The position numbers and the translations under genes are program-made. DNA of 32,000 nt from Candidatus Micrarchaeum sp. (GTDB taxonomy: Archaea > Micrarchaeota > Micrarchaeia > Micrarchaeales > Micrarchaeaceae): assembly GCF_016806735.1 (NCBI RefSeq), contig NZ_CP060530.1, positions 750,001-782,000 on the forward strand, given 5' to 3'. The notes below the pieces were generated by a model. The model was given only the letters and a program-made list of their open reading frames with translations. It did no database searches and was not told the origin of the DNA. Every line of letters starts with the position of its first letter. Positions within the stretch are counted from its first letter, which is position 1. Positions 16,764-32,000 of the stretch are shown here, piece by piece.

Positions 16764-17191
16764 TATATAACACCTTGATTTTTCCTTTTCTTTGTTTCCT
16801 TCAGATATATATCTTATGAGCGGCGTCTGCCGCAAAAATATAACACTTTGCACTCAGGAGATACCCGGCAGTGCTTCAGAATACCCTTTTATTGCGGTTA
16901 TAATATTATTAAAGATTTGCCTGGCAATGCTCGCGTTGGATGCTTCCATAATATTGGCCACATATGCCAATCCTGGCATGAGTTTTGCCGGAAATGCAAA
17001 AATTTGCAGCCATGCCAAAAATCGGACAGGCGCTTTTTGAAACTTTTTAAAAACTGTGCTCCTCGACAGAATTTCAGATTTTGGATTTTGGCTTACGCCG
17101 GTAATTCTGCAGTTTTCCAGGGCTGGCGAATTTTCGGCGACAGATTTTAACGTAAAAAGCAAAAATGTTTATAATAGTAAACTTTTTAATT

Positions 17192-17209
17192 GCAGTTTTT
17201 AAAAACTGC
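17192..17209. promoter_or_regulatory. perfect 18-bp palindrome upstream of speH
   Basis: GCAGTTTTTAAAAACTGC is its own reverse complement and ends 82 nt upstream of the speH ATG. A related half-site, CTTTTTAAAAACTG, occurs at about 17044-17057. Confidence 0.3.
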
Positions 17210-17291
17210 GGAATAATCTTTTTAAGCGTTTGGGTATCTTAATAAAGCGTCAAAATTTCTGTGACTTTAAAAGGTTGCAGGTGAAGAAAAG

Positions 17292-17696
17292 ATGGCAAAG
17301 ATAGCAGGAACACAGATATTGCAGAAGCAGGTCCCAAGAATAGTTGGGAAGCACGTTTACGGCAACATGTACGAGCTCGACGAGAGATACATAGCAAATT
17401 TGGACTACCTGACAAAGCTTGTTGTAGATTCGGCGAAGATAGGCAACATGCACATAGTAGAGCTCGTTACAAAGAAGTTCTCCCCATATAATGGAGTAGA
17501 GGGAGGAGTTTCAGTAATAGCGCTCATAGAGGAGAGCCACATAGCCCTTCACACATGGCCAGAGAGCAGCTACGCCACTCTTGACATATACTCATGCGGC
17601 GAGGCAAGCAACCCGGAAGTGGCTTTCAGGTACATAATAAGCAAGATCAAGCCGAAAAGATACAAAATGTTCAACGCTGACAGGAGCAACATATGA
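17292..17696 (+). CDS. speH: S-adenosylmethionine decarboxylase proenzyme (pyruvoyl-dependent, class 1b)
   Basis: VSVIALIEESHIALHTWPE contains the self-cleavage E-S site and the HTWPE block. YATLDIYSCG follows. The 134-aa size is typical of archaeal/bacterial SpeH. Confidence 0.88.
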   Translation: MAKIAGTQILQKQVPRIVGKHVYGNMYELDERYIANLDYLTKLVVDSAKIGNMHIVELVTKKFSPYNGVEGGVSVIALIEESHIALHTWPESSYATLDIYSCGEASNPEVAFRYIISKIKPKRYKMFNADRSNI

Positions 17697-17902
17697 GCTC
17701 CTTCGGCTTTCTGGTTCTTTCTTATTTTAAATTTTATTGTTTTATAAGGCGTTAGTGCCAACGTATAAGATAGTCGCAATAAGCAGGCATTTTATTTATG
17801 ACTCAGCATTCTTGCTTTATATATGTGGATTTTTTGCTTTTGTATGGAATTTGTTTAAAATTCTGACTAAGAGTTTTTAGACTTTCAGCAATAAAGATAA
17901 AT

Positions 17903-18367
17903 ATGGATATTGGAACTTTGGGTGAACTTGAGGTCATAAATTTATTAGGTAAAAAATTTCCTGTTTGGATACCTTTTAAGGATAAAGGGTTGGATTTTGG
18001 CTTAAAAACAGATAAAAAGTTTTATAGATTACAGATAAAAACTTCAAAATTTCAGAAAGGGAAATATTTTTGGTTTGACTTGTACGGATCTAAGATGGTT
18101 TATTCTTCGGATGTAATATACGTATTTGTATGTTGGATACCGGAAAGGCATAGATTAATGGGTAAAAAACTAAATTATATAGTTATACCATCTAAAAAGC
18201 TGGAAACGTGGATAAAAGAAGGCAAGATAGCGCATAAACAAAAAAATAATAATATATTTAACATTTTTATATACCCGAATGAAAAGGAAAAGAAATGGTT
18301 ATATAAAAATAAAGACAAAAGCTTAGATTTAAGCGAGTATTGGAATAATTTCCAGGTATTTAAATAG
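17903..18367 (+). CDS. PD-(D/E)xK nuclease-fold-like protein, function unknown
   Basis: N-terminal GELEV helix, then KGLDFGL and YRLQIKTSK, giving an E...D...(Q)xK order like restriction-endonuclease-fold proteins. The gene looks much more AT-rich than its neighbours. Confidence 0.4.
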   Translation: MDIGTLGELEVINLLGKKFPVWIPFKDKGLDFGLKTDKKFYRLQIKTSKFQKGKYFWFDLYGSKMVYSSDVIYVFVCWIPERHRLMGKKLNYIVIPSKKLETWIKEGKIAHKQKNNNIFNIFIYPNEKEKKWLYKNKDKSLDLSEYWNNFQVFK

Positions 18368-18398
18368 TATTATTGTTTAAGTTATATTGGTGAAAGAG

Positions 18399-18689
18399 AT
18401 GAGCAGATACATAAGGCATGACAGGAACCATCCGTTTGTGGTGAAGCTTGGCGAAGTGTCGGGATTCGCGAACCTGACCAGCGACGAGAAGCTGAAGAAT
18501 TTCGAGCTCCACATGTGCGCATGCGGGCTGTCCAAGCACAAGCCGTTCTGCGACGGAACGCATATGAAGGTGCAGAACGAGAAGCAGGGAGTGCACTATG
18601 CTTACAAGGAGGGCAACGCGCAGATAGAAAACGTAAAGCTTGAAGAGGCAGAGCACAAAGAGCTGGAAGTTCCGAACGAATATGAATAG
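18399..18689 (+). CDS. CDGSH-type iron-sulfur domain protein
   Basis: CACGLSKHKPFCDGTH matches C-x-C-x2-S-x3-P-x-C-D-G-(S/T)-H. Alternative starts are TTG 18387 and GTG 18390. Confidence 0.75.
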   Translation: MSRYIRHDRNHPFVVKLGEVSGFANLTSDEKLKNFELHMCACGLSKHKPFCDGTHMKVQNEKQGVHYAYKEGNAQIENVKLEEAEHKELEVPNEYE

Positions 18690-18784
18690 TCTTGCTTTTC
18701 CTTTTTGATTTTTTCTATTTTGTTCTGTAAAGGAATTGCAACACTATTTTTAAATCTTGCTTCTCAATCCTGAACGGTGAATTA

Positions 18785-19159
18785 ATGTCAATGGCAGACA
18801 ATAACACAGGGATGGGAAGTACGCAAGCGCAGGCGAGCAAACCCAGCGCAGGAAGAGGCAATAGGCCAACTGGCGTAACAATACTGGCAGTATTGCAGAT
18901 ACTTGCAGGAATAGCATATTTGGCCATAGGGCTAGTAGCGGGGGCGTTGGTTGGGATATTAGGCGTGCTATTCATACCGTTTGGGCTTTTTGCGCTTATA
19001 ACCGGTCTGGCGCTTTTCACAGGCAAGAATTGGGCGCGCATACTCATAATGATTGGCGGAGTGCTTGATCTTATAGACATACCCATAGGCACCATAATAG
19101 GCATAGTAATATTATGGTACTTCACAAGGCCTGAAGTCAAAGAGTATTTCGGAAAGTAA
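18785..19159 (+). CDS. small membrane protein (3 predicted TM segments)
   Basis: Polar N-terminus followed by hydrophobic helices (VTILAVLQILAGIAYLAIGLVAGALVGILGVLFIPFGLFALITGLALF). The antisense ORF 18715..19140 has an implausible composition. Confidence 0.55.
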   Translation: MSMADNNTGMGSTQAQASKPSAGRGNRPTGVTILAVLQILAGIAYLAIGLVAGALVGILGVLFIPFGLFALITGLALFTGKNWARILIMIGGVLDLIDIPIGTIIGIVILWYFTRPEVKEYFGK

Positions 19160-19242
19160 TTGGGCTTTTCTTTTTCTTTTTAATTTTTCTTTTTGCATCT
19201 GTTATTTAGCTTTAGTTTTTGAAATCCTAAACATAGATTGGA

Positions 19243-20805
19243 ATGGAGTATCAGGAAGGGACTTCAGAAGTGCGCGAACTTGGCTCTAAGGCTTTGAGGA
19301 GCGGCAGCTTTTTCATTTCAAGCAAGATAATCAGCGCAGTGGTCACTCTGCTATTGCTGATTTTCCTGGCCAGATACCTGAAGCCTGTTGATTACGGAAT
19401 ATACACTATAGTAATAGCGCTTTACACGCTCCTTGGCATGGGGGGCAACTTCGGCATGGGCACTGCGCTCAGGAAAAAACTGTCAGAAAAGGAGGTAGGC
19501 AGGGAAAGAAAGAAGGAGCTAGTGTCAAACGGGTTCGCAATCGCAGGAATCATATCATTGGTTATAATGATAATTGGCATAGCAATAAGCGGAGTGCTTG
19601 CCAGCGCAGTATACCACAATACGAGCATGTATTACCCAATAATAGTAGCAGCAGTGTGCGTGCTGCTTTCGGTTCTTTTCAACCTTTCGGTTGCAGTGCT
19701 CGTAGGCTTGGGCTCAACAAGGCACTCATCAATTGCAAACATAGTCTATGCACTGTCGCAGGCAATATTCGTTGTCGCACTGGTTCTTTTGGGCTACGGG
19801 GTGCTTGGAGCTGTCGCAGGCCTGGCAATAAGCCTTCTGATAGGCTTTGTTTATGCAATCCTTCACATTTATGGAAATATAGGCACTTTCGTGCCTAGAT
19901 TCAAAAAGGCAATATCCAGAGAATTGGCTTCATTTTCAATACCCGTAGTCACTTCAAACATAGCCATATCCGGAACAACAAGCCTTGCGATATTGCTGCT
20001 TGGAGTGTTCGCCACTACTGCAGTGGTTGGAAGCTATGGGGCGGCATACAAGCTTGGAAGGTTCTTTGAGCTCATAATGACTTCCATGACATTCGTGATA
20101 CTTCCCGCATTCTCCTATACTCTAACCAACGAATCCATAAGCAAAAGGATTGCGGGAATCTACAACAACAGCGTTTTCTACGCTTTCATCTTCCTCCTGC
20201 CAATACTCGCTTATGCTGTAGCAACAACAAAGCCCTTGACAAGGCTTCTTTTCGGAAGCGCATACGTCGGAGCGCCTTTGTACTTCGCCTTCATATCGGT
20301 AGGCACAGTAATAGGGCTTATAGGCAGCTTTGCGGGCCAGCTCATAATAGGCAACGGCGATACAAAGAGGTTCATGAAATACCAGCTCGTAGTAGTGCTT
20401 GCAGAAGTAGCCCTTCTGGCAATACTTGTGCCATATGAAAAGGTTGCAGGAGCGCTTATTGCAGTATTCGCCGTTGGCCCGATATTGATGGATCTGCTCT
20501 ACATAAAGGCCCTGCGCAGCCAGTTTTCCATAAGAATGGAGTGGAAAAGGCTCGGAAGGCTGACACTATCTGCAATTATGCTTTTCGTTGTTCTTTTCGC
20601 GTTGACCATTGCAATGCATTACAGCAGAGCGGCAGTGCTGGTAAACATAATAGTTGCATTGCTCCTATATCCGCCAATGCTTGCAGTTACAAAGGCGATA
20701 GAGAAGAGGAATCTGGATTTCATAGCAGAGTCAATGTCCAAGATAAGGCAGCTGAAGAAGCCGGCTTCAATAGCCATAAGGTACATTGGCTTTTTCATAG
20801 GCTAA
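19243..20805 (+). CDS. polysaccharide/oligosaccharide flippase (MOP superfamily, Wzx/RfbX-like)
   Basis: 520 aa with about 12-14 TM helices. The N-terminal pattern SKIISAVVTLLLLIFLARYLKPVDYGIYTIV is typical of polysaccharide biosynthesis (Wzx) proteins. Confidence 0.7.
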   Translation: MEYQEGTSEVRELGSKALRSGSFFISSKIISAVVTLLLLIFLARYLKPVDYGIYTIVIALYTLLGMGGNFGMGTALRKKLSEKEVGRERKKELVSNGFAIAGIISLVIMIIGIAISGVLASAVYHNTSMYYPIIVAAVCVLLSVLFNLSVAVLVGLGSTRHSSIANIVYALSQAIFVVALVLLGYGVLGAVAGLAISLLIGFVYAILHIYGNIGTFVPRFKKAISRELASFSIPVVTSNIAISGTTSLAILLLGVFATTAVVGSYGAAYKLGRFFELIMTSMTFVILPAFSYTLTNESISKRIAGIYNNSVFYAFIFLLPILAYAVATTKPLTRLLFGSAYVGAPLYFAFISVGTVIGLIGSFAGQLIIGNGDTKRFMKYQLVVVLAEVALLAILVPYEKVAGALIAVFAVGPILMDLLYIKALRSQFSIRMEWKRLGRLTLSAIMLFVVLFALTIAMHYSRAAVLVNIIVALLLYPPMLAVTKAIEKRNLDFIAESMSKIRQLKKPASIAIRYIGFFIG

Positions 20806-20853
20806 AAAGGAAATAATTTATAGGTTTAACAGGTAAATAAAAGAGCGAAAGGT

Positions 20854-20961
20854 GCCCTGGTAGCTCAATGGCAGAGCGCCTGTCTTGTAAACTTCTTGAA
20901 AAGAAGTTTAATCAAGAACCAAGATAACAGGAGGTTGAGGGTTCAATTCCCTCTCAGGGCT
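20854..20961 (+). tRNA. tRNA-Thr (anticodon UGU) with a 36-nt intron at the canonical 37/38 position
   Basis: Hand-folded cloverleaf:
- acceptor GCCCTGG/TCAGGGC (one G-U pair);
- D arm GCTC-AATGGCA-GAGC;
- anticodon stem CCTGT (20879-20883) / ACAGG (20927-20931);
- loop CTTGTA...A;
- variable loop AGGTT;
- T arm GAGGG-TTCAATT-CCCTC;
- discriminator T.
The intervening sequence (about 20890-20925) contains its own hairpin ACTTCTT-GAA-AAGAAGT, and CTTG/CAAG pairing is compatible with a bulge-helix-bulge motif. Confidence 0.85.
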
Positions 20962-20977
20962 TTTGTCTTAAAGTTAG

Positions 20978-21009
20978 ATGCCCCTTTAGGGCATACGATA
21001 ACCTTTTTT
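20978..21009 (+). terminator. hairpin plus T7 tract after tRNA-Thr
   Basis: ATGCCC-CTTTA-GGGCAT (20978-20994) is followed by TTTTTTT (21003-21009). Confidence 0.35.
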
Positions 21010-21242
21010 TGAGAAAAGTCTACCACATGTAAAATATAGAAAGGTTTAATAGCATATTTTAGGTATTTTACCATAGGTAGTGTGACATTATGTTTATACA
21101 AAAGTATATAAATTTATATTATAATAAAAGTATTACAAAATGCGCGGCTAACGCTATACAAATAAGCCGATTGTTTCTGGGTGGAGGTAGTAAATTAAGA
21201 ACGTATTTGTTAGCGGATGCTGTGCGGGGTTGGTGATATTAT

Positions 21243-23075
21243 ATGGCGAAAAATAAAGAAGATTCTAAATCAACAAAATTAGCAGATCATATCGAAGAGA
21301 CCGTAAATGATGAAGAAGAAATAGAAGCAGTAGAACTACCACAACAAGAGGCATTTTTCAAGATGCCTAAAAGGTTTGGTACAATACCTGATGTATCAGA
21401 GAAGCCCTTGGGATGGGGAAAGGGAGGATATGAGCATCTTTACCCACACGTAAAATTACCAACTCAAAGATTAGAAACCATTAGATTTAGTAGAAAAGGA
21501 GAACCCAATAAATTATATTGGGGAGACAATCTCCATATAATGAGGACATTGCGTTCTGAATCCATAGACCTTATTTATATAGACCCTCCTTTCTTTTCTA
21601 GTAGGAATTACAATATGATATTCCAAGACCAAAACGAGGTAATGACATTTGAGGATATATGGGATGGAGGGCTTCCAACTTACCAGATATGGCTCAATGC
21701 AAGACTTATAGAGATGAAGAGATTACTCAAACCTACAGGTTCTATATATGTGCATCTTGACTGGCACGCCGTACATTATGTTAAAATTGAGATGGACAAG
21801 ATATTTGGATATGATAGATTTTTAAATGAAATAATTTGGTATCATGGATTTAGGGGCACTGAAGCAAAGGCACAGTATCAACGAGCACATCAGACTGTTC
21901 TTGTGTATACAAAATCTAATAACTACTATTGGAATCAACAATATCAAAGTTATAAGGACCCAGATATGAAACGCTATAATAAAACTGATGAGAAAGGAGA
22001 AAGGTATGCCTTAATAAAAAGACGTCATACAGATGGATCTATTTATTATGGAAAAACTTATCCTAAAAAGGATGGGAAAAGAATAAATGATGTAATAGAA
22101 ATGCCAATCTTAGCATCCACCAATAAAGAGAGGGTAGGGTATGATACACAAAAACCAGAAGCACTGATAGAATTGTTATTAAGGACATCTTGTCCACCAA
22201 ATGGAATTGTGGCGGATTTCTTCTGTGGTGGAGGGACTACTCCGGCAGTTGCTCAAAGACTTGGTAGACACTGGATAGCAAGTGATATATCAAGGATAGC
22301 GGTTGAAGTGACAAAGGGACGTATATTAAGATTATTGAAAAGTGAGAAAGGCACTCAGACAAACTTTGCCAAAGTCCCTAACATAGAAGTATGGTCTTGG
22401 GGTTTTTATGATGCAGATAAACTGCAAGATATAAGTGATGAAGAATTTAGGGATTTTATAGTTAGGGCTTATGGTGGTAGGCCTACTTCAAATGAGTATA
22501 CTAGCGGTTCTAAAAATGGAATACCACTCCTCGTTGGGAATAAAAACCGCAGAAATCAAATCACTAAAAAAGAGGTATTAGAATTTGCTAAATATATACA
22601 GGAAAATTACGAACTTCATAAGGCAGGCACCATACTTGCATGGGGATTTGCGGATAGTGCAATAAAGGCACAAGAGGCACTTGCGAACATAGGAGCAGAG
22701 ATAGACTTTGTAAAGATAAAGACAGTAAGAATAGGTTCGTATGAGTTTATAGAGGATGTTATAACCAAAAACAAAGAATATAAGAATGTATTTAGGTTTG
22801 TCTTTCCTCCAGAAGTAGTACTGCATGTAACTAAAGAAAACGGAGAATTTAGTTTTGACTTTTCAGATTCTGTATCTCTTAACAATGGAAAAATAATTAA
22901 TATACAAGCAGACTTCGATTTTGACGGGAAATTTGCACCATCAGAAGGATACATATTCAATCCGAATACTATGATTCTCAAATACAAATTTAATTTAATA
23001 GGAAAGAAAAAAATAGCCTTCAGAGTAGAAGATGATCACGGTGGCGAAAAACTAGTTGTCAAGGAAGTGGAATAA
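21243..23075 (+). CDS. DNA methyltransferase, beta-class (N6_N4_Mtase family; probably N6-adenine), Type III Mod-like, with a roughly 230-aa C-terminal extension
   Basis: Motif IV IYIDPPFF (D114, nt 21582) lies upstream of motif I FFCGGGTT (nt 22218-22241). This order is the beta permutation. DPPF rather than SPPF favours m6A. GGTGAT RBS before the ATG. Confidence 0.88.
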   Translation: MAKNKEDSKSTKLADHIEETVNDEEEIEAVELPQQEAFFKMPKRFGTIPDVSEKPLGWGKGGYEHLYPHVKLPTQRLETIRFSRKGEPNKLYWGDNLHIMRTLRSESIDLIYIDPPFFSSRNYNMIFQDQNEVMTFEDIWDGGLPTYQIWLNARLIEMKRLLKPTGSIYVHLDWHAVHYVKIEMDKIFGYDRFLNEIIWYHGFRGTEAKAQYQRAHQTVLVYTKSNNYYWNQQYQSYKDPDMKRYNKTDEKGERYALIKRRHTDGSIYYGKTYPKKDGKRINDVIEMPILASTNKERVGYDTQKPEALIELLLRTSCPPNGIVADFFCGGGTTPAVAQRLGRHWIASDISRIAVEVTKGRILRLLKSEKGTQTNFAKVPNIEVWSWGFYDADKLQDISDEEFRDFIVRAYGGRPTSNEYTSGSKNGIPLLVGNKNRRNQITKKEVLEFAKYIQENYELHKAGTILAWGFADSAIKAQEALANIGAEIDFVKIKTVRIGSYEFIEDVITKNKEYKNVFRFVFPPEVVLHVTKENGEFSFDFSDSVSLNNGKIINIQADFDFDGKFAPSEGYIFNPNTMILKYKFNLIGKKKIAFRVEDDHGGEKLVVKEVE

Positions 23076-25087
23076 TGAAACAAGTAACAATGCCAAATCT
23101 TTTTGTTAAATACGAAAGAGATTACGAAGAGTGGAAGAATAGCGGCTATAATGGATGTACAACAGAAACATTAGAATTCATAACACATTTACTACATAGG
23201 ACAGAGAAACAGCTATGGGCACATCAAAAGGAGGCAATACTAAGAGTAATATACCTGTACGAGATTAAGAAAGGAGATTTGCAGAACAGGTACTTGTTAA
23301 AAATAGTTACGGGTGGTGGTAAAACCATAATAATATCTGCAATAATAGGATGGCTCTTTTATGCACACTCAGAAGACGTTCATAAGATATTAATACTTGT
23401 CCCAAATTTGATAGTAAGAGACAGATTGGAATATGACTTTATAAGAACCGCAGAAAAGAAGAATACAGTATTTGAGACTTGGGATATAACCCCAGATAAA
23501 AACTTAAACAGCAGGCTAAGCGCAGCAGTATTAGAAAGCGGTTCTACACCTCAAAGGATGCTGGAAGTTGACATAATAATTTCAAATATTCAGGAGTTAT
23601 ATACCCGTAATACAAATACGGCAAGCAATTTAAACTACATACTCAAAAACTTTGATACTCTGGCAATATTCAATGACGAAGCACATAACACAAACGCTGC
23701 TGAATTTGATCACATACTGAAATTACTAAATGATAAAACAATATTGAGACTTGATACTACAGCAACCCCTGAAAGAGCGGATGGGACTTATCCAAATTCA
23801 AACTTAATATATGACTTTGATATTGACAGTGCATTGACAGCAGACAGACCAATAATAAAAGATATCGTAGTGTACAGACCAGATACAAAACTATTGGAGA
23901 TAACATATATTAATGCCACAACAGGCGTAAAAAAGAAGATTGACGAACTTGAACCCGAATTTGAGGAGGCCGAGAAAAGACTTAAACCATTTAATTGGAT
24001 TATGGATGATGCACCATTGGACCTATTGACAGACATTTCTTTGGATAGATTGAAAGAAAAAGAGAAGGAGGCGAAAGCAAATGGAGACTATAAACCAATA
24101 TTGTTTGTAGTAACTATGGGAATAGACGAAGCAAAGAAAGTTCAACAGTTTCTAGAAAATAGAAGGGGAATAAAAACATTATTAGTGACAGAAGAGTCAG
24201 GGGATAAAGACAGAGAATCTGCAAGAAGCCTAGGTAGTACAGATAGTCCTTATAAAGCAGTAGTAAGCGTATTCATGTTAAGAGAGGGATGGGACGTTCC
24301 AGAAGTATCAGTTATATTGTTGCTTAGGAGAATAATATCACCTGTCTTCGGTCAACAAATAATAGGAAGAGGGCTTAGAAAGATAAATAAAACAAGTTTA
24401 GAAAGGGAAACTCTTTCTGTTGTAGACCACCCGCAGCTTCAACATGATTGGCTTTGGAAAAAAATGAGAGTAACAAAGACAATAAATGATGTTATGCCAA
24501 ATGAGGAGATAAAAATACCAAAACTACCAAGAAGCGAAGACCATATACCACGCCTTGAACATCCAGAAAACCTTATATCAATCAAACCATATTCTGATAA
24601 AGAATTTGAGGAGAGATTAAACAGATTAAAAGATAGCCTTAGTGATGCACAGCCCGATAAAGAATGGAGAAAAACTTTGAATAACTTTACTTATGATACA
24701 ACCAAGTATTCTATAACAAAACTAAAATTGGAGAGCATACGCAAAAAATATATAGGTAAGAAATTTGGGGAAGAGGTAGACTATGATGTTAGTACATTTA
24801 GCGAGGCTGAAGATATTCAAGATATAAGTGCTGATGATTTAAAGAAGCAGATACTTTCAATAGTAGAATACATCCTAGAAAAGAACAATGTAAGTGAAAT
24901 GGACAAGGGTAGATTTTATAAAGTTCTCCTTGATATGATTTCTAAAAGGTTCTTAAGTTCCAAGCCGTTATCGCAATCAACGCCAAAAGATAGGATATTA
25001 ATCTTCAATAATTTAGAAAACATAGCAGACGCATTTACGCTGCCTGTCGTAAAAGGGATAATAGAAGATGGTGCATTGGATGAGTGA
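23075..25087 (+). CDS. SF2 DEAH helicase, Type III restriction Res-subunit-like, lacking a nuclease motif
   Basis: Motif I VTGGGKT (nt 23309), motif II FNDEAH (nt 23675), motif III TTATP, motif V LREGWDVPEVSVILLLRR and motif VI QQIIGRGLRK. The ATG overlaps the MTase stop by 1 nt (TAATG). Confidence 0.85.
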   Translation: MKQVTMPNLFVKYERDYEEWKNSGYNGCTTETLEFITHLLHRTEKQLWAHQKEAILRVIYLYEIKKGDLQNRYLLKIVTGGGKTIIISAIIGWLFYAHSEDVHKILILVPNLIVRDRLEYDFIRTAEKKNTVFETWDITPDKNLNSRLSAAVLESGSTPQRMLEVDIIISNIQELYTRNTNTASNLNYILKNFDTLAIFNDEAHNTNAAEFDHILKLLNDKTILRLDTTATPERADGTYPNSNLIYDFDIDSALTADRPIIKDIVVYRPDTKLLEITYINATTGVKKKIDELEPEFEEAEKRLKPFNWIMDDAPLDLLTDISLDRLKEKEKEAKANGDYKPILFVVTMGIDEAKKVQQFLENRRGIKTLLVTEESGDKDRESARSLGSTDSPYKAVVSVFMLREGWDVPEVSVILLLRRIISPVFGQQIIGRGLRKINKTSLERETLSVVDHPQLQHDWLWKKMRVTKTINDVMPNEEIKIPKLPRSEDHIPRLEHPENLISIKPYSDKEFEERLNRLKDSLSDAQPDKEWRKTLNNFTYDTTKYSITKLKLESIRKKYIGKKFGEEVDYDVSTFSEAEDIQDISADDLKKQILSIVEYILEKNNVSEMDKGRFYKVLLDMISKRFLSSKPLSQSTPKDRILIFNNLENIADAFTLPVVKGIIEDGALDE

Positions 25088-25415
25088 AGGAGTATATAAG
25101 TCACCTAAAAAAAGCCCCTACTCGTGTGAGATATACGATAGTGAGTTTGAAAGGGAGTTCATGGAAGAGCTTGAGAAAGACCCGGAGGTTAAGAAATGGA
25201 CAAAAAATCATGGGATTAGAATACCTTATGTAAATATAGACAGTAAAGTAGCTCATTATAATCCTGATTTTATTGTTGAATATGAAGATGGAACACAGGA
25301 ACTAATAGAAATAAAGGGCAAAAATAATCTCACTGAAATAATCAAGCGTAAGCAAAAAGCAGCCAAAGAATGGTGCGAGAAGAGAGGCATAAAATACAGG
25401 CTAATAACACTGTAA
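25080..25415 (+). CDS. PD-(D/E)xK endonuclease domain protein (Type III Res C-terminal / TnsA-N-like)
   Basis: YNPDFIVEYEDGTQELIEIKGK gives D-x13-E-x-K. The upstream SEFEREFMEELEKD helix and the downstream KQKAAKEWCEKRGIKYRLIT match the layout of Res C-terminal nuclease domains. ATG 25080 overlaps the helicase stop (ATGAGTGA); ATG 25068 is also in frame. Confidence 0.65.
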   Translation: MSEGVYKSPKKSPYSCEIYDSEFEREFMEELEKDPEVKKWTKNHGIRIPYVNIDSKVAHYNPDFIVEYEDGTQELIEIKGKNNLTEIIKRKQKAAKEWCEKRGIKYRLITL

Positions 25416-25647
25416 ATAGTTTTTAGACACTTTATAGACAAAATGGTGAGTTTTTAGATAGATTCGGAGTTTTTAAACAAAGCTCTCTCGTGCTAAAAGC
25501 TTAAATTCTACTTTATCAACAAAATTTGACTTTTTCAACAAAGCCTCTAACAAGAAGTTTTATCAAGAAAAAAGGCCTGATATAGAAAACAAAGGGTTTA
25601 ATATTATTGAACTTGATATTAAGTTGTACTGATTAAATTAGTTATAG

Positions 25648-27693
25648 ATGATTATTATGGCTAGAAGGGCAGTAAATGACATGGCAAAAGAATTTGTGGA
25701 TGAAGTAAAAGGGTTTATGGGTGATATGGGTTTTGAAAACCCACAAGGAGGTACTACTTTTAAAATAGGTGGTAAGCAAGTTGCCGCTGCGGGCGGATTT
25801 GGAAACATATATATTATAATAGATTGTGTACTTTCGCAAGAGATTGGAGATAGGGGCAACATAAAATCTAAAATAGAGGAATGGCGCGGAAATTATGAGA
25901 TTTTTAAGAATGGATTAGAGGAAGAGGATATTTTAAAAAAATATAATGATGTACGTTTAGTTATTGCAACCAAAAGAATAAGATTAAATGAGCAGGATAG
26001 AAATCTTGCTGCAGGTAACAATCCAAAAGTATATATTTGGAATGAGCAATTCTTTGAGTATTATAAAGATTTAAAAAAGAAAATAGGGAAGTATGCAAAA
26101 TATGAATTGCTTAGGGAAATTAATTTCCCGGAAGAACTAACACTTAGAGATGTACCTGCAATAAAACCTAATGGTTTTTTTGGAACGGATTTGGGAATAA
26201 ATTATTATATAGCAAGTGTAAATCCGTTAGATTTATTAAAGATATCATATGTTGCCCGAAGAGAAAGAGGAGACCAAGCCTTTTACCAAAGAATGATTAG
26301 TGAAAACAAGATTAATCAGATTGAATATTATATTAATCACAACAGAAAGCAGTTCTACAATAATGTTATAGTTGCAATAAATGATAGAGATAGGATAAAA
26401 TTTACTCCGTCAAAAGCATTGGAAGATAGACAGGAGATAGGAGAATTAACTATCGAAAAAACCACAGAGCCATTATGGATAATAGATGGACAGCATAGAT
26501 TATATGGATATGCAAAAGCAGAAGAGAAACTGAATTCAAATAGGAGTGATAGAGAAAAAAATAATAAAGAAAAAACCAATTGGAAAATCCCGGTATCTTT
26601 TGTTGTAGGACTAGACACTAAATTACAAGGAGAATTATTTATGGATATAAATACAACGCAAACATCCTTGTCTGCAGATTATATTTGGGATCTATACTCT
26701 ATTTATAATGAATCAAAATTAGAGGGTTTTATATCAAAATTAATAAAGAAAATGAATGTAGGAGATGGTTATTTTAAAGGTAAGATTTATATCCCTAGTT
26801 CCTCTATAAAAAAAGATAAAGGCCAACTTACAATTTCGAAAATTGGGCGAGCTATAAAGGAAAATAAACAGATATTCAATGAGATGATAAGTAGTAAGAG
26901 AGATGAAGAAGAGGTTAATAAAGCTTTCAGAATCATTAACACATACTTTGAATATATTAATGAGAAGAACATTGAGTATGCTAATTTCTTTAGCTCTAGT
27001 GTAGGAATCCAAACAATATTGCCGTTATTAAAAACATTTACTAATGCATACGATGGAGATGAAGATAAAGTTAAGGAATATATCGAAATATTAGTTAAGG
27101 ACCTTGATAATAGTGAATTTTACAAAGGTAAAAATTTAAAGAAAGAGTTGTCAAAAACCCTTGGAAACAAAACAACTAAAGAGGAATTTATAAATAATTT
27201 GATAAATGAAGTTAACGAGATTATTATAGATGAGGGACGCCAAGACGGACTTAAACTTTTACCAAGTAATGAATCAAAGAGTATATTTGCAATTTTAGAA
27301 AAAAAATTACGTAATTTAATAAATGATAAATTAAGCGCGATAAATAAAAATTGGTTGCAAACAAGGGGCGTAGATCGCACAAAATATGAAAATTTATTAA
27401 AAAAGGCAAAAGAAAAAACTCCTGGAGGGATCTGGGCAAAGGCTGGCTTTGGGGAATGCATAACAGTTATGAATAGGAATGATAATTGGCCTATATTTGA
27501 GAAACTATTTGTATCATTAAAAGGGTATAAAAATAAAAAAGAATTAATAGATGACTTAGGAAGAATTTATGAGTATGGTAGAATTCCAGCGTATCATGGA
27601 GATGAAAGAGAGGATAAAGTGAGTAAATATAATAGACAAGCTGCAGAAAAATTAGCAAAAAAACTTCTAACCGTTTTAGAGTCACTATCTTAA
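25648..27693 (+). CDS. DGQHR-domain (DndB/ParB-Srx-like) protein fused to a C-terminal Swt1-like HEPN domain
   Basis: FYQRMISENKINQIEYYI...NNVIVAIN...LWIIDGQHRLYGY (DGQHR at nt 26485-26499, aa 280-284). The C-terminal blocks are LEKKLRNLINDKLSAINKNWLQ, GFGECITVMNRNDNWPIFEKLF and GRIPAYH (R645-x4-H650, nt 27580-27597). About 160 aa at the N-terminus and about 260 aa in the middle are unassigned. Confidence 0.75.
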   Translation: MIIMARRAVNDMAKEFVDEVKGFMGDMGFENPQGGTTFKIGGKQVAAAGGFGNIYIIIDCVLSQEIGDRGNIKSKIEEWRGNYEIFKNGLEEEDILKKYNDVRLVIATKRIRLNEQDRNLAAGNNPKVYIWNEQFFEYYKDLKKKIGKYAKYELLREINFPEELTLRDVPAIKPNGFFGTDLGINYYIASVNPLDLLKISYVARRERGDQAFYQRMISENKINQIEYYINHNRKQFYNNVIVAINDRDRIKFTPSKALEDRQEIGELTIEKTTEPLWIIDGQHRLYGYAKAEEKLNSNRSDREKNNKEKTNWKIPVSFVVGLDTKLQGELFMDINTTQTSLSADYIWDLYSIYNESKLEGFISKLIKKMNVGDGYFKGKIYIPSSSIKKDKGQLTISKIGRAIKENKQIFNEMISSKRDEEEVNKAFRIINTYFEYINEKNIEYANFFSSSVGIQTILPLLKTFTNAYDGDEDKVKEYIEILVKDLDNSEFYKGKNLKKELSKTLGNKTTKEEFINNLINEVNEIIIDEGRQDGLKLLPSNESKSIFAILEKKLRNLINDKLSAINKNWLQTRGVDRTKYENLLKKAKEKTPGGIWAKAGFGECITVMNRNDNWPIFEKLFVSLKGYKNKKELIDDLGRIYEYGRIPAYHGDEREDKVSKYNRQAAEKLAKKLLTVLESLS

Positions 27694-27770
27694 ATAAGAT
27701 TTCAGATTTATACTCAACTCCCTTTGTAAGGAACAGGTATAAGACTGCGTAGATTAACTAGTGCTACTAA

Positions 27771-27791
27771 AGATATTAGGCTATAATATCT
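27771..27791. terminator. hairpin between convergent genes
   Basis: AGATATTA-GGCTA-TAATATCT is a perfect 8-bp stem. It lies 78 nt after the DGQHR-HEPN stop and 59 nt after the stop of the minus-strand small ORF. Confidence 0.3.
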
Positions 27792-27849
27792 GTGTGCTGA
27801 TAAGTGCTATGTTTGAGTTTGCGATAAAGCCTAACTTTATTCAATAGCC

Positions 27850-28008
27850 CTATATCTTTTCTACTTTGCTGATGATTACGTATCCTGGCTTTGTCTGCTT
27901 TAGTCTCGCATAGGCATCTAGTATAGTATCTACACTTACTTCCTCTGTCTCTACGAACTCTACGTCCCCCAAATCCCTGTGTTTCCAAGTTACTTTGTAT
28001 TTTGCCAT
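27850..28008 (-). CDS. small hypothetical protein (52 aa)
   Basis: MAKYKVTWKHRDLGDVEFVETEEVSVDTILDAYARLKQTKPGYVIISKVEKI has protein-like composition. The overlapping ORF 27776..27988 is Arg/Cys-rich and looks spurious. No homology recognised. Confidence 0.3.
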   Translation of the reverse strand: MAKYKVTWKHRDLGDVEFVETEEVSVDTILDAYARLKQTKPGYVIISKVEKI

Positions 28009-28169
28009 AAAATTACTTGCATAATGTATCAATTCGGGATTTATACACCTTAGCTATACCTTCGTCAATAATAAAACTATAAGAAGCCGAATAAAACTAA
28101 GAAATCTTATTAAACTACAAAGCCCCTAACAGGATAAAGCATAAATAGTTATATAGATAATTCAAAAAT

Positions 28170-28616
28170 ATGGCTTTGATGCGTGCGAAGGAAAACGAAT
28201 ATTCAGTCTATTATATTTCTGAGCCCGGGCTAATAAAGTTAACTACTTATTCAAGAAAATTTTCTTGGGGAGTGTTCTTAATAGCTTTCATTTTATTCTG
28301 GCTTTTTATAGGAATAGGTGGAGTTGTAGGAGGTGTTATTGTGGGTTTTATAGTAACTATGATCCTTGATGCTGCGATAAGCTCGCCAAAAATAACCAAA
28401 TGGGATAAATTGGCTTTCGGAGATTTGAAGAAAGAAAAAGACGCTTTGTTCATAAAGTGGTCAGATGTAAAAAGTGCAGTTTTCGACGCACCTGAAAAAA
28501 TAAATTTAGTAATTGAAAATAAAAACCACAAAATGAAAATATTAACTAATTTTACTGATGCAGAGAAGCTCCTGCAATTAAAGCTAGGCAATAAGCTTGA
28601 GATACGCAAAAGATGA
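28170..28616 (+). CDS. membrane protein (2 TM) with a small soluble C-terminal domain
   Basis: WGVFLIAFILFWLFIGIGGVVGGVIVGFIVTMILDAAI forms a hydrophobic hairpin. A beta-rich tail of about 75 aa follows. Confidence 0.5.
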   Translation: MALMRAKENEYSVYYISEPGLIKLTTYSRKFSWGVFLIAFILFWLFIGIGGVVGGVIVGFIVTMILDAAISSPKITKWDKLAFGDLKKEKDALFIKWSDVKSAVFDAPEKINLVIENKNHKMKILTNFTDAEKLLQLKLGNKLEIRKR

Positions 28617-28892
28617 CTAAAAGACCATTTCTAATCTTGCAGGTGTAGTTTTTACCCTAAAAAGCTTATGACAAGGAATGTCGCAGCAAATTATTATGTG
28701 AAACGCTATTGCCCCTGATGGTTTTGGCGGTTTTTGCGCTTATGCCGGAGATGCCGACCCTTGTGCTGCAGGCAGTGCTTACGGCCACGATATTTGAGTA
28801 CAAGACGTGGCGCTCGGCTAAGTAAGGGCTTGGCTCGCGGGCTCGCTCCGCCATCGCTCGCCCGCTCGGCTAGCCGCGCGATATATTTCAAA

Positions 28893-29315
28893 TTAGTGCT
28901 TAAAATGAAATTTATTGATGCTTTGATGATTTAATGGAGGTAATTCATCGTGATCAGCGATGTATGTGTCAATCAATAAACTTTCGTAAAGTCTTGGCTT
29001 TCCTATCAGTAAGAATGCAACCTCAATCTCGTATTTTTTAGAGAACCATTTAACGTGCTGGTTTGTTGGCTGATCTCTGCCAGGTTTCATATAGCCTCTA
29101 AAGCGGCTTTTAAAGCTTTTAGTAGTGCTGCCTATGTAAACTATATCAGATTCTCCCCTTACTCTTCCAAATTTCCTGCCGTCTTTCATCCTTATTTCAT
29201 AAACACCTGCTTTTTTATCCGCATAATCTAATATATCATCAAATGGCACCCATCCATCGAATCTTATTTTTATTCCATCCATACCTTTTACTAGATTTGT
29301 AGATAGCATATTCAC
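28893..29315 (-). CDS. GIY-YIG nuclease superfamily protein
   Basis: AGVYEIRM...DIVYIGSTTKSFKSRFRGY...YESLLI...PPLN gives GIY-like and YIG motifs, the conserved Arg, a Glu and a terminal Asn in the canonical order. Confidence 0.6.
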   Translation of the reverse strand: MNMLSTNLVKGMDGIKIRFDGWVPFDDILDYADKKAGVYEIRMKDGRKFGRVRGESDIVYIGSTTKSFKSRFRGYMKPGRDQPTNQHVKWFSKKYEIEVAFLLIGKPRLYESLLIDTYIADHDELPPLNHQSINKFHFKH

Positions 29316-29564
29316 ACCATTCTGTATTAAGTACTAAGTAGTAAAAGATTAATCTTTTAAGTTCAACGTCCTGTTTTGGAAAATTTTAAGGTAAGCAAGC
29401 TTTACTTATGGTTTCTTTACATCGTTTGAATGAAGTCTTGAGTGAAGAGAAGGTTACGAGTAAGAGATAAGACTATTATGCTTTATCTAAATATTGTTTC
29501 TTATTATTTTTTATCAAAGATGACGCTAAACTTAGTAGAAAGTCAAACAGCATCATCAATAAGT

Positions 29565-30251
29565 TTATGATGTATGAAAGCCGAAGTATTTGATTGAAAA
29601 TTCTGCAGTTACTGTTTGATTATAATAGAAGTTAGACAATAGCATATAGTTTGTTCCATTAACTATAGGTAATATTGCAGTTTGACCATTAGGCCCGGCA
29701 TAGGAATCAACAGGAGCAATATATTCATTTGTATCTAATACTCCGCCACTGTAATATGGCTTTTGGGTCGAAACATATATGAAAAATGTACCGTTATCTA
29801 AATTGTTATTGATAGGTGAAACGGTATAATTTACTACTAAATACCCAGGATAAGGAGCAGAGAACGAAAAGTTGTATGAAGATGCCACATACAATCCAGT
29901 TGTATAATTGTATGTTTCTGGCGGTATACTTACAACCTGCTTGTTTGCTAAAATCTTAATGTAAGGATGTGTCAAATTATATTCTGTTATGTTATACTTT
30001 TTAGATAAATTATTGTAAGCGGCCTGCAGGCTGCTAAAATTGACCTTTTCTGTAATATAGTTGTATTTGAGAGTATTATAATTTGATTGCAACACGCTAT
30101 AGTTATACTTCACAGAGGAATAGGAGCCTTGTGTTTGTGCATAAGAGCTTAACGTTTGTGCATACAGCACTGCAAAGACCGCTACCAAAACGAGCAATAT
30201 GCCTATTACTACGTAAAATCCGGTCTTAGGCTTAGATACGCTTTTTGCCAT
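29565..30251 (-). CDS. membrane-anchored extracellular protein, probably glycosylated
   Basis: N-terminal anchor FYVVIGILLVLVAVFAVLYA, a repetitive YN-x-L/YNY segment, and at least 10 N-x-S/T sequons in the beta-rich C-terminal part. Confidence 0.55.
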   Translation of the reverse strand: MAKSVSKPKTGFYVVIGILLVLVAVFAVLYAQTLSSYAQTQGSYSSVKYNYSVLQSNYNTLKYNYITEKVNFSSLQAAYNNLSKKYNITEYNLTHPYIKILANKQVVSIPPETYNYTTGLYVASSYNFSFSAPYPGYLVVNYTVSPINNNLDNGTFFIYVSTQKPYYSGGVLDTNEYIAPVDSYAGPNGQTAILPIVNGTNYMLLSNFYYNQTVTAEFSIKYFGFHTS

Positions 30252-30493
30252 AATAGAACCCCCTACCCTATTTGACTATTAGTAAGAAGGTTTTTTAATT
30301 GTATTTGTTTGATAGGCAATATTGAGAAGTATTTTGTATATGAGCAGATTTCAGTTAGTGACAAGTACCCTTGTTTTGTGGGCTAATTGACTTTGCCATG
30401 CTACTTCTTTATATAGTTTTACAAAATTTGAGTTAAGATAGAGCTACGACCACAAGATTTCGTAAGACAAATGATATACTCTTTAGCCAAAGA

Positions 30494-30751
30494 GTGCACG
30501 AGATAGTCACAAACAGCATTCCGGGAAACGGACTCCTGAAGCTGCCAAAGCTGAGCTACAACCTCACAGAAGCCAAGAGGTCAGTGCTGGAGAAAATGGC
30601 GCAGAGCGAGAAAAAGAGCGTGGCGCAGATAGCAAAGGAGCTGAAGAAGACCAGGGGCATGATATACCAGCATCTCCGCGAGTTAAGGGACACCGGATAC
30701 ATTGATGAAAAATTCAACATAACCGAGGCAGGCAGGCTGGCCCTGCTTTGA
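30494..30751 (+). CDS. small winged-helix transcriptional regulator (copy A)
   Basis: SVLEKMAQSEKKSVAQIAKELKKTRGMIYQHLRELRDTGYIDE is an HTH plus wing pattern (ArsR/TrmB-like). GTG start; ends ...TEAGRLALL. Confidence 0.65.
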   Translation: MHEIVTNSIPGNGLLKLPKLSYNLTEAKRSVLEKMAQSEKKSVAQIAKELKKTRGMIYQHLRELRDTGYIDEKFNITEAGRLALL

Positions 30752-30752
30752 A
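30542..30752 (+). repeat. direct repeat copy A (about 211 bp)
   Basis: By hand alignment it matches 31511..31717 with roughly eight substitutions and one 4-nt indel (GCAGGCAGGCTGG versus GCAGGCTGG). Confidence 0.85.
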
Positions 30753-30833
30753 TTAGATTTGTGTCAGCACCAGTTTAATATTATATAGCACTAATCTGAA
30801 GAACGATTTAAATAATTTAAATGCAAGCGTTAC

Positions 30834-31487
30834 GTGTGCGGTGTTAATTTGGTAAAATATGCAGTATTGCTTGGGTATGGGCTATTTGATCGTTCAAATA
30901 TGAATTATAAGAGATACTTGGATAATTTTGCTTCTTTTGTCAATAAAAACGATATTGAAGTTGTTGTACTTTCCGGGGGACACACAAACCCTAGAAGACC
31001 CTTGGAATCCGAGGCAAGCACCATTTCAAAATATCTAGAGAGTAAAGTAAAGCGGAATACAACCATACTGCTTGAGGAAAGATCTTTGACAACTGCTCAG
31101 AACATAGAGTTTACCAAGCCATTGCTAAAATTGGCCAATGGTTCAGTGACGGTTTTTTGTGATAATATAAGGCCGCCAAAAGTCATGTGGTATGTACTGC
31201 ATTATTGGTTCGGACTTGGCAAGAGAGAAATAGAAAACTATTTTTTGGAATATTCGCTTAAATTCTATTCAAAACATTTTACCACAGAGCAAATAGGAAA
31301 AGAACTGAATAAGGGCTTGGCATATAAAAATGTCCTAGTAAAACCTTATCGCATGCGCACCGGCATCGATGACGCAATTAGTGGTCAAATTGCTTCTGTT
31401 CTAGAAATAAACTCCTTATATGATAAAAAGCTGTACTCAAAATTGATTAAGGCAGTAAAGATAAAATTTGGACTTAAAAACCGATGA
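30834..31487 (+). CDS. DUF218 / YdcF-ElyC-like protein
   Basis: VVVLSGGHTNP...SEASTISKYLES...ILLEERSLTTAQNIEFTKPLL matches the SG(G)...sEA..m..yL...E..S.nT.eN signature of DUF218. AT-rich. Start uncertain (GTG 30834). Confidence 0.6.
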   Translation: MCGVNLVKYAVLLGYGLFDRSNMNYKRYLDNFASFVNKNDIEVVVLSGGHTNPRRPLESEASTISKYLESKVKRNTTILLEERSLTTAQNIEFTKPLLKLANGSVTVFCDNIRPPKVMWYVLHYWFGLGKREIENYFLEYSLKFYSKHFTTEQIGKELNKGLAYKNVLVKPYRMRTGIDDAISGQIASVLEINSLYDKKLYSKLIKAVKIKFGLKNR

Positions 31488-31798
31488 AAATAGCAAATAC
31501 CACAAACAAACTGCAAAAGCTGAGCTACAACCTTACAGAAGCCAAGAGGTCAGTGCTGGAGAAAATAGCGCAGAGCGAGAAAAGGAGCGTGGCGCAGATA
31601 GCAAAGGAGCTGAAGAAGACCAGAGGCATGATATACCAGCACCTGCGCGAGTTAAGGGACACCGGATACATTGATGAAAAATTCAACATAACCGAGGCAG
31701 GCTGGCCCTGCTTTGAAGTTGTCAAACATAACTATTTTTATTTAATTATTGAAATTTACATACAGATGATAGCTTCAGGGACAGCTTTTCGACAATAG
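31484..31798 (+). CDS. winged-helix regulator paralogue (copy B) with a frameshifted, extended C-terminus (possibly a pseudogene)
   Basis: Residues 10-71 are nearly identical to copy A. A 4-nt deletion relative to copy A changes ...TEAGRLALL* into ...TEAGWPCFEVVKHNYFYLIIEIYIQ... The ATG overlaps the DUF218 stop (ATGA). Confidence 0.5.
   Translation: MKIANTTNKLQKLSYNLTEAKRSVLEKIAQSEKRSVAQIAKELKKTRGMIYQHLRELRDTGYIDEKFNITEAGWPCFEVVKHNYFYLIIEIYIQMIASGTAFRQ
31511..31717 (+). repeat. direct repeat copy B (about 207 bp)
   Basis: See copy A. The two copies bracket a 758-bp segment (30753..31510) that holds the DUF218-like gene. Confidence 0.85.
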
Positions 31799-31893
31799 TG
31801 CGCCTCTGGGGGCTATACGCCTGATATCATAAAATTAATATCTCTTATAGACAACTGAAAAAGGCGTGATTAGGTCCTTTTCAGGGCCTGCTA

Positions 31894-32000
31894 TTATCTA
31901 AAAGAATCTTTGTACATATCACGTTTGCCTTCTGCCATTCCACGCTTTACATTTTCATTTTTTTCTTCAAGATTTTTTATTTCCTTGCGCACATCATCAG
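31894..32000 (-). CDS. 3' end of a minus-strand gene running off the window (partial)
   Basis: Reverse-strand frame reads ...DDVRKEIKNLEEKNENVKRGMAEGKRDMYKDSFR* with stop TAA at 31894-31896. An imperfect hairpin AGGTCC-TTTTCA-GGGCCT follows at about 31872-31889. Only 34 codons are visible. Confidence 0.3.
   Translation of the reverse strand, partial: DDVRKEIKNLEEKNENVKRGMAEGKRDMYKDSFR

Follow-up and report, generated by a model that had tools for sequence, protein, structure and literature searches.

Two adjacent and probably independent defence cassettes in Candidatus Micrarchaeum: a Type III-like restriction-modification trio with a split Res and a DGQHR-HEPN gene

Four co-directional genes in Candidatus Micrarchaeum raise the question whether restriction-modification (R-M) genes and a neighbouring gene for a DGQHR-HEPN protein make up one defence system or two. 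The genes lie in a 32,000-nucleotide (nt) stretch of Candidatus Micrarchaeum genome DNA (contig NZ_CP060530.1, positions 750,001 to 782,000), called the window here, whose numbering is used throughout. On the + strand the open reading frames (ORFs) encode a DNA methyltransferase (MTase; 21243-23075, 610 amino acids, aa), a helicase (23075-25087, 670 aa), a small nuclease (25080-25415, 111 aa, or 115 aa from an alternative ATG at 25068) and a protein of 681 aa with a DGQHR domain (25648-27693). The helicase ATG overlaps the MTase TAA by one base (TAATG), the nuclease ORF overlaps the helicase stop (by 8-20 nt in all), and a spacer of 232 nt (25416-25647) precedes the DGQHR gene. An earlier reading of the letters by themselves (the sequence-only reading) had called the four ORFs with exactly these coordinates and overlaps and had joined them into one composite system. 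Both gene sets are of a defence type, as it supposed, and the composite did not hold: the arrangement shows no conserved linkage, and in six out of six other contexts the first three genes have no DGQHR gene beside them.

We consider it probable that two independent defence cassettes stand side by side, cassette A being a Type III-like R-M system with a split Res and cassette B the DGQHR gene. On this reading the cassettes are separately mobile modules in a variable, AT-rich region downstream of a tRNA-Thr gene, and they adjoin through defence-island clustering and not through functional coupling.

Separate boundaries and separate relatives

Alignment by blastn gives the two gene sets boundaries that lie 66 nt apart. 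The homology block of cassette A (21096-25480, + strand) extends ~147 nt upstream and 65 nt downstream of the operon and is 78.5% identical over 4404 nt to a locus that has no DGQHR gene (L171). The block of cassette B (25547-27721, + strand), bounded by its match to L167, takes in the DGQHR gene, ~100 nt of conserved upstream sequence and 28 nt downstream; it is 84.1% identical over 2177 nt to L167 and L168, neither of which has R-M neighbours. The 66-nt junction between the blastn boundaries (25481-25546) has no match in relatives of either cassette.

The upstream region travels with the DGQHR gene, which argues that the cassettes are independent. The 100 nt before the DGQHR start are ~95% identical to L167, compared with 84% across the aligned cassette, most of which is coding. 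The promoter/5' region (25547-25656) is more conserved than the DGQHR coding sequence. Within the stretch conserved with L167, the archaeal promoter consensus picks out a candidate B recognition element and TATA box (BRE/TATA), AAAACAAAGGG-TTTAATAT, at 25586-25604 (+ strand), ~50 nt before a start codon that opens the sequence MARRAV. This codon, at 25657, is likely the true start of the 681-aa ORF, as in the 678-aa NCBI protein P0001; the window protein is 100% identical to a Candidatus Micrarchaeum sp. protein. Cassette B is thus predicted to be a single-gene module with its own promoter. A scan for sigma-70 promoters and terminators found no excess over shuffled sequences, and such a scan is uninformative for an archaeon.

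The spacer also holds an array of ~six short T-rich direct repeats, A[CG]TTT[AT]T..ACAAA, at 25418-25542 (+ strand). The repeats noticed earlier are real, since none of 100 shuffles reached their count. The part of the array up to 25480 is common to L171 and none of it is found in L167. Most simply, the array may be read as archaeal oligo-T termination signals or as junction sequence.

Gene order separates the two sets as well. We sampled six further archaeal contexts of helicase homologues, at 84, 58, 50, 48, 45 and 42% identity. All six keep the order MTase (598-664 aa), helicase (655-673 aa) and nuclease (111-117 aa), and none has a DGQHR gene beside the trio, which argues that the trio is self-sufficient. 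Likewise, the closest relatives of the DGQHR protein with a genomic context (P0003 at 78% identity, P0005 at 49%, and P0014, P0023 and P0030 at ~35%) have no MTase, helicase or nuclease neighbour. Their surroundings consist of small unknown ORFs, glycosyltransferases, transposases or cas genes.

Variants of the locus itself bear on the same question. The four-gene block occurs in ~10 contigs from several samples, all of one population with 99.9-100% nt identity. In one variant the loss of 1 nt at window 24456 breaks the helicase into parts of 460 and 207 aa (loci L180 and L181 cover the variants), and the truncated product, P0138, is present in three contigs. Another variant has a 4-nt deletion at 22304-22309 that frameshifts the MTase. 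In both of them the DGQHR protein is 100% identical. Together, the separate blastn boundaries, the trios without a DGQHR gene, the DGQHR relatives without a trio and the intact DGQHR protein beside frameshifted R-M genes argue for independent cassettes.

A restriction-modification trio with a divided Res

The first gene of cassette A encodes a predicted β-class N6A/N4C DNA methyltransferase. Residues 108-357 match N6_N4_Mtase (PF01555, E 2e-42), the DPPF motif (motif IV) stands before FCGGG (motif I), and the matches among PDB sequences are CcrM, RsrI and EcoP15I Mod. PADLOC scores the protein best as MTase_II (6e-62) and next as MTase_III (2e-41). Its last ~250 residues have no Pfam match, and the C-terminal extension there (~240 aa, residues ~371-610, window 22353-23072, + strand) is conserved in other trio MTases (L171, L173 and L175). 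The last ~90 residues of the extension (SDSVSLNNGKIINIQADFDFDG...EDDxGGE) weakly resemble a PKD-type β-sandwich: Pfam PKD_4 matches one of four sequences at E 0.011, and collagenase PKD domains match at E 0.24. The extension possibly ends in a PKD-like β-sandwich, a fold that is unusual in a cytoplasmic MTase. A domain shared between MTase and helicase, considered on account of colinear short DNA repeats (D2, D6), was rejected; BLASTP found none (E ≥1), and the repeats are chance matches.

The second gene encodes a DEAH helicase of superfamily 2 (SF2), with a ResIII match at E 4e-20 and a weak Helicase_C match. Its last ~200 residues have no match. Foldseek with the AlphaFold2 (AF2) model of the helicase (predicted local distance difference test, pLDDT, 75.9) returns EcoP15I Res (4zcf_C, E 6e-13) at the top, and leads other SF2 ATPases with it only narrowly. 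The small ORF matches a TnsA_N-like family (E 3e-14) and RE_endonuc (E 8e-9), and its PD...ExK motif reads NPDF...ELIEIKG.

Helicase and small ORF appear to be a Res cut in two, because each matches an opposite end of one fused model. In NF046055, a fused helicase-nuclease of 970 residues, positions 78-235 align with the helicase and positions 839-940 with the small nuclease; the scores of the two proteins, 73.2 and 62.1 bits, stand against a cut-off of 800 and do not make either a member of that family. The small nuclease likewise aligns to positions 738-826 of 871 in the PADLOC model REase_III. The helicase would thus be the motor part and the 111-aa PD-(D/E)xK ORF the nuclease part of a split Res.

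Archaea have many homologues of the helicase; the best 120 all fall within 641-679 aa, so that none of these carries a fused nuclease. The separate nuclease gene recurs in all sampled contexts, which argues that the split is conserved and is not a frameshift. Moreover, the catalytic motifs of cassette A are intact, with GGGKT, DEAH and QxxGRGxR in the helicase, PD..ExK in the nuclease and DPPF and FxGxG in the MTase. Together these results point to a Type III-like R-M system in which Res is stably split into two polypeptides. The sequence-only reading had described the MTase with its motif order and unmatched extension, the DEAH helicase with its TAATG overlap and the detached PD-(D/E)xK nuclease correctly, and the detachment turns out to be a conserved feature.

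The surroundings of trio homologues are typically defence-island-like. One trio (L184) lies four genes downstream of a GmrSD gene (L184 1-1210), and another (L183) lies near HipA/MazE-like genes.

The DGQHR protein and its relatives

The protein of cassette B is predicted to have three domains: an N-terminal domain of restriction endonuclease (REase) fold, a DGQHR domain of the ParB/Srx fold and a Swt1-like HEPN domain. The DGQHR call made from the letters stands on its own score and the HEPN call stands by way of the family; the count of two domains does not stand, as the N-terminal one had been missed.

The DGQHR domain (family TIGR03187 / PF14072) occupies residues 175-450 (26170-26997, + strand) and scores 122.7 bits with TIGR03187, against a cut-off of 58.85. 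Its residues Y213-Q-R215, D280-GQH-R284 and F331...N335 do not vary among 114 aligned relatives. DndB (TIGR03233) gives 34.4 bits with a cut-off of 328 and DpdB (NF041060) 56.6 with a cut-off of 300, so the protein is an equivalog of neither. When the model of the 681-aa protein is compared with viral proteins by Foldseek, it matches GmrSD_N, DUF262, ParB and DndB-like proteins; DUF262 and DUF1524 have no match in the window protein itself.

The N-terminal domain (residues 1-165, 25648-26142, + strand) has a PD-(D/E)xK fold. Among 37 family N-termini, 11 match Hjc, 6 NERD, 6 Card1_endonuc and 3 Mrr_cat, all families of the REase fold. The family profile aligns with Hjc (1gef) over E...D...ExK, and in the AF2 model of the protein (pLDDT 84.6) the domain has the topology α-βββ-α-β. 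The precomputed Pfam matches also include a match of the N-terminal domain of P0064 to the Hjc model. The conserved acids are present in most relatives (E in 101 and D in 102 of 114 members), and of 161 members, 76 have E-D-E-K and 33 have E-D-E-T at the four catalytic positions. The window copy reads V17, A46, D59 and V61 at these positions, and this 'VADV' is unique among the 161. The window domain thus lacks the canonical PD-(D/E)xK pattern E...D...(D/E)xK, and its fold is supported at family level. Relatives 80% identical to the window protein retain the E and the D. We predict that V17 and A46 disable the DNase site of the window copy.

The predicted HEPN domain covers residues 536-681 (27253-27690, + strand), with the signature E551xxLR555 ... 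R645-IPAY-H650. Of the aligned family C-termini, 23 of 53 match HEPN_Swt1 (PF18731; best E 1.3e-6), and the signature is kept across the 114 members, with E in 106, R in 96 and H in 95. Since relatives match PF18731 and the signature is conserved, the HEPN call gains support for the window protein by way of its relatives. AF2 places helices at 542-565, 630-650 and 660-679, as in a helical bundle. Among PDB structures the HEPN part has no convincing match, HepS being found at E 0.49, and profiles of the full family, the HEPN part and the N-terminal domain found nothing significant among PDB sequences.

The ratio of nonsynonymous to synonymous substitution rates (dN/dS) against the L167 homologue is 0.26 overall, with 0.22 for the N-terminal domain, 0.19 for DGQHR and 0.42 for HEPN. 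The window DGQHR gene is under purifying selection.

The family that joins REase fold, DGQHR and Swt1-type HEPN has hundreds of members, in archaea, Candidate Phyla Radiation bacteria, Chloroflexota, Acidobacteriota and alphaproteobacterial plasmids. For its neighbours we took a census of 160 non-redundant loci from genome and metagenome scans and called their ORFs. Neighbours were labelled by hidden Markov models grown from seed sequences, and the labels were broadly cross-checked against aggregate Pfam counts. In HEPN-class members an MTase gene occupies 28 of 184 positions at ±1 and 9 of 384 at ±3 to 5 (Fisher p = 3e-8); in all classes combined the counts are 51 of 288 and 12 of 576 (p = 9e-16). 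The adjacent MTases belong to three families: Dam-type D12, N6_N4 and C5. A ResIII helicase, by comparison, stands near the DGQHR family gene in 1 of ~160 loci. Of the linkage to R-M genes that the sequence-only reading had put up for checking, the part about MTases was borne out and the part about helicases was not.

The association with MTases depends on distance from the window protein. Loci with an MTase within two genes number 0 of 7 in the nearest similarity bin, 15 of 47 in the next and 36 of 95 in the third, which has 19 radical-SAM (rSAM) loci besides. In the seven nearest loci neither an MTase nor an rSAM gene lies within two genes. The MTase link of DGQHR-HEPN homologues is thus a link to solitary MTases, and is seen in more distant relatives only. 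Overall, an rSAM gene lies within two genes in ~20 of 160 loci (21 as binned), and 24 rSAM homologues occur anywhere in the loci. On pNL1 (L176 8137-12277) and on an Agrobacterium plasmid (L177 7308-11002), distant long DGQHR-HEPN proteins stand beside a shared cassette of a short DGQHR protein, a radical-SAM enzyme and a GHKL/HSP90-like ATPase, which may be an undescribed DNA-modification module. The picture that emerges is of a sensor-effector family, paired with a DNA-modification enzyme in many lineages and standing alone in others.

Some members carry extra domains: P0039 and P0087 have an EVE domain (PF01878, a modified-base reader) and P0111 has PF04326. The idea that MTase-linked members keep the canonical ExK while solitary ones degenerate was dropped, as the two do not correlate (24 of 48 and 25 of 59).

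The partners of known DGQHR systems, which the sequence-only reading could not recognise, are indeed missing: no dnd, dpd or ssp gene appears among precomputed Pfam matches in window 15657-32000 and 5.7 kb beyond, and the large ORFs upstream are housekeeping genes.

Rival readings, setting and known systems

Could the four genes nevertheless be a two-layer composite, in which Type III-like restriction is backed by the DGQHR-HEPN protein as a dedicated abortive-infection backstop or as a sensor tied to the MTase of cassette A? The genes run in one direction with little space between them, the block recurs in its ~10 contigs, and long DGQHR proteins associate with DNA-modification genes family-wide. 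Those contigs, however, are one population, and the arrangement is confined to a single lineage: the six other trios have no DGQHR gene, while the 78%-identical DGQHR homologue and others have no trio. Each cassette has boundaries of its own, a conserved promoter region goes with the DGQHR gene, and variants with a broken helicase or MTase keep that gene intact. We regard the composite as very unlikely, and synteny in the sampled loci appears already to have largely refuted it. Still less credible is the notion that the helicase and nuclease genes are a frameshifted or decaying fused res, cassette A being the remnant of a dead R-M system. The short ORF overlap (8-20 nt) and the frameshifted population variants would fit it. 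However, in six further contexts, with identities as low as 42%, a helicase of 655-673 aa is followed by a nuclease gene of 111-117 aa, the unfused length is common to the 120 best homologues, and catalytic motifs are intact in all three proteins; judged by this conservation, a frameshift origin of the split Res is already refuted.

A further possibility concerns cassette B by itself. The 681-aa protein might be a DndB-like, NTP-modulated DNA-binding repressor of its own gene or of neighbouring R-M genes, with degenerate nuclease-like domains. DndB is reported to be an ATP-modulated repressor (PMC4507180; cited in PMC10853773), two catalytic acids of the N-terminal domain are missing from the window copy, in which the residue after the HEPN Arg is unusual, and a repeat array lies upstream of the gene. 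The array, however, is absent from L167 and is not conserved with the gene, the DndB and DpdB scores fall far below their cut-offs (34 against 328; 57 against 300), and canonical E-D-E-K and E..R..H sites, of no use to a protein that only regulates, persist in most of the family. Nor do the closest relatives have modification genes to regulate. We find this role unlikely, though less so than the composite. Two independent cassettes, of which the second would encode an effector, remain our preferred reading, and several observations weigh against it. The disabled N-terminal domain is still under purifying selection, so 'dead nuclease' may be too simple a term. The window HEPN segment alone has no Pfam match at E up to 10, and its clade has Ile after the catalytic HEPN Arg, where Asn or Asp is usual. 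Full-length Foldseek of the 681-aa model against PDB gave weak partial matches only (Cdn1/Card1 nuclease domains, ParB-N and McrC, all with E >0.5). The lack of correlation between canonical ExK and MTase adjacency weakens the idea that a restriction arm needs a protective MTase. Finally, in one lineage the four genes are co-directional, with only 232 nt before the last, so read-through or functional cross-talk may occur, and the DGQHR protein might sense methylation laid by the neighbouring MTase.

Under the reading of two cassettes, each would work by itself. Cassette A most likely behaves as Type III enzymes do: the MTase with its conserved C-terminal extension would recognise the target site and methylate it. 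The DEAH ATPase would dock on the MTase and use ATP to depart from the site and move along the DNA by sliding or translocation, and the 111-aa PD-(D/E)xK subunit would make the cut. The overlapping start and stop codons suggest that the subunits are co-translated and stoichiometric. That an MTase frameshift is tolerated beside an intact helicase and nuclease fits, circumstantially, restriction that needs the MTase for recognition.

For the DGQHR protein we offer a mechanism tentatively, holding it to be somewhat less likely to be right than wrong. Its DGQHR domain would be an NTP-binding DNA sensor that gates a DNase (the N-terminal domain) and an RNase (HEPN), a role suggested by analogy with GmrSD, SspE, BrxU and DndB/DpdB. 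In relatives beside an MTase or a radical-SAM cassette, the long DGQHR protein would probably be the restriction arm. For members of the solitary clade, the window copy among them, independent action as an effector of Type IV-like or abortive-infection type is more likely, and the HEPN RNase would be the sole predicted catalytic output left to the window copy.

A broader proposal, which we think more doubtful still, would make the long DGQHR proteins a family of NTP-gated, DNA-sensing defence effectors with both DNase and RNase output, acting alone or as the restriction arm of interchangeable modification modules, and the trio a distinct three-subunit Type III-like class widespread in archaea. 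The modules would be Dam-type, N6_N4 or C5 MTases, or the radical-SAM, short-DGQHR and GHKL-ATPase set, which could introduce a DNA modification that is new; on this view selection would have maintained the Micrarchaeum copy as a natural variant with a dead DNase and HEPN as its only output.

Both cassettes lie downstream of a tRNA-Thr(UGU) gene (20854-20961, + strand; Rfam RF00005, 58.9 bits), whose 3' end is 281 nt from the MTase ATG. Its anticodon loop, CTTGTAA, gives the anticodon TGT (Thr), and it has an intron of ~35 nt after position 37, which marks an archaeon. ARAGORN missed this gene at 20854-20961 and called a tRNA-Gly as the sole tRNA in the window. GC content is 0.29-0.36 across 21000-28000, against 0.45-0.52 where the window carries housekeeping genes; there the large upstream ORFs encode IleRS, a cytochrome b-like protein and an HMG-CoA synthase-like protein. 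The upstream tRNA-Thr and the AT-rich block had both been recognised before, and both are confirmed. A 46-kb Logan contig (L179) is 100% identical to window 20951-30595 and unrelated leftwards. This strain-level breakpoint (20951-20961, L179 position 5295) coincides with the last 11 nt of the tRNA-Thr gene, CTCTCAGGGCT, and suggests that the tRNA end is a point of recombination or integration; the break in L179 may mark a site of tandem integration or a junction of the att type. A search of window 20700-32000 and of L178 turned up neither an integrase nor another copy of the 11-mer, and the left flank of L179 has no integrase-like Pfam match. Megablast of the region against plasmids gave no match, and tblastn against phages gave one weak match.

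Further features surround the block. A 140-aa ORF just downstream of the defence genes (28893-29315, - strand) has a weak GIY-YIG match (E 0.0015, below the Pfam cut-off). A 199-nt direct repeat with 95% identity, at 30539-30737 and 31508-31706, duplicates an ArsR/TrmB-type helix-turn-helix gene on both sides of a DUF218 gene (30834-31487). A second AT-rich stretch, at window 500-3500 (GC 0.33-0.39), carries five co-directional ORFs (164-3831).

The kind of system closest to cassette A appears to be Type III R-M (EcoP15I/EcoP1I, Mod2Res1). Both have the order mod then res with overlapping stop and start codons, a β-class N6_N4 MTase and an SF2 DEAH ATPase, which here is structurally closest to EcoP15I Res, and the cassette A nuclease has its homologue in the endonuclease region at the C-terminal end of Type III-type Res models. 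One defining feature, the fused nuclease, appears to fail: in seven of seven loci, the window included, the nuclease is a separate polypeptide, of 111 aa here. The window MTase differs further in scoring higher as a PADLOC Type II enzyme and in its ~240-aa C-terminal extension, and the window helicase in its unmatched C-terminal ~200 aa. In Type III enzymes Mod is SAM-dependent and by itself recognises an asymmetric site, and cutting takes ATP and two unmethylated sites in inverse orientation. In Micrarchaeota, genes for Type III Mod and Res have already been counted in a survey based on REBASE (PMC10609329). The split genes together resemble BPTD_3080 (NF046055, fused, 970 aa); the window, in contrast, has two polypeptides, scoring 73 and 62 bits with a cut-off of 800. 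A second comparison is with CglI/NgoAVII, in which the R subunit has a B3-like domain and a PLD-family nuclease. There too, in ATP-dependent systems with separate M, R and H/N subunits, nuclease and SF2 helicase-like motor are different proteins beside an MTase, the R subunit carrying its own DNA-recognition domain with the nuclease and the motor being a DEAD-Z1 protein (PMC5861437). The nuclease of cassette A, by contrast, is a bare 111-aa PD-(D/E)xK domain and its motor is of the ResIII type. Cassette A offers a clean, conserved example of a Type III-like system with Res split into motor and nuclease, and would lend itself to studies that separate the motor from the cleavage function. Mis-scoring by automated pipelines is likely, as the MTase is scored best as Type II, the helicase barely as REase, and the nuclease gene is easily ignored.

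For the DGQHR protein the nearest precedents date from 2013. Anantharaman et al. described Swt1-type HEPN-ParB fusions with a link to R-M, for example Saro_3948 of pNL1 (PMC3710099), and Makarova et al. noted that the DndB-type ParB domain occurs fused to HEPN (PMC3632139); both papers are computational surveys. The combination of DGQHR/ParB with Swt1-type HEPN is the same, and the Novosphingobium aromaticivorans pNL1 protein is a detectable relative of the window protein with the same three domains. What differs here is the added N-terminal REase-fold domain, the statistics on rSAM and MTase partners, and the place of the window protein in a solitary archaeal clade, with a mutated N-domain site. 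In the literature we found no named system and no experimental work on ParB/DGQHR-HEPN fusions. PADLOC v2 has no dedicated model for the long DGQHR protein, giving only DpdB and DndB matches, and a 2026 survey of archaeal immunity mentions neither DndB nor ParB. The sharper description (three domains, MTase or rSAM pairing, solitary clades) makes the long DGQHR proteins a testable defence candidate, and a natural active-site variant under purifying selection poses the concrete question which domain matters.

Better-characterised proteins share parts of this architecture. The DGQQR NTPase domain of GmrS is a relative of DGQHR, and genes for GmrSD-type proteins mostly stand alone in defence islands (PMC4619093); binding of ATP and GTP is reported for a DndB-like protein (bioRxiv 10.1101/2025.10.10.680097). 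Like GmrSD, SspE and BrxU, which are of a Type IV-like kind, the window protein is a single polypeptide in which a ParB/Srx fold with QR, DGQxR and FxxxN motifs is coupled to a nuclease. Unlike them it has DGQHR instead of DGQQR, and its effectors are an REase fold and HEPN, not a DUF1524 HNH domain; the similarity to GmrSD is one of fold and motif only. With DndB and DpdB the protein shares the DGQHR domain, but it has an extra N-terminal nuclease-fold domain and a C-terminal HEPN domain, and no dndACDE, dpdA/C or ssp gene is nearby. The ParB-HEPN fusion as such is not new, having been catalogued in 2013, and both modules of the locus are of kinds already described computationally.

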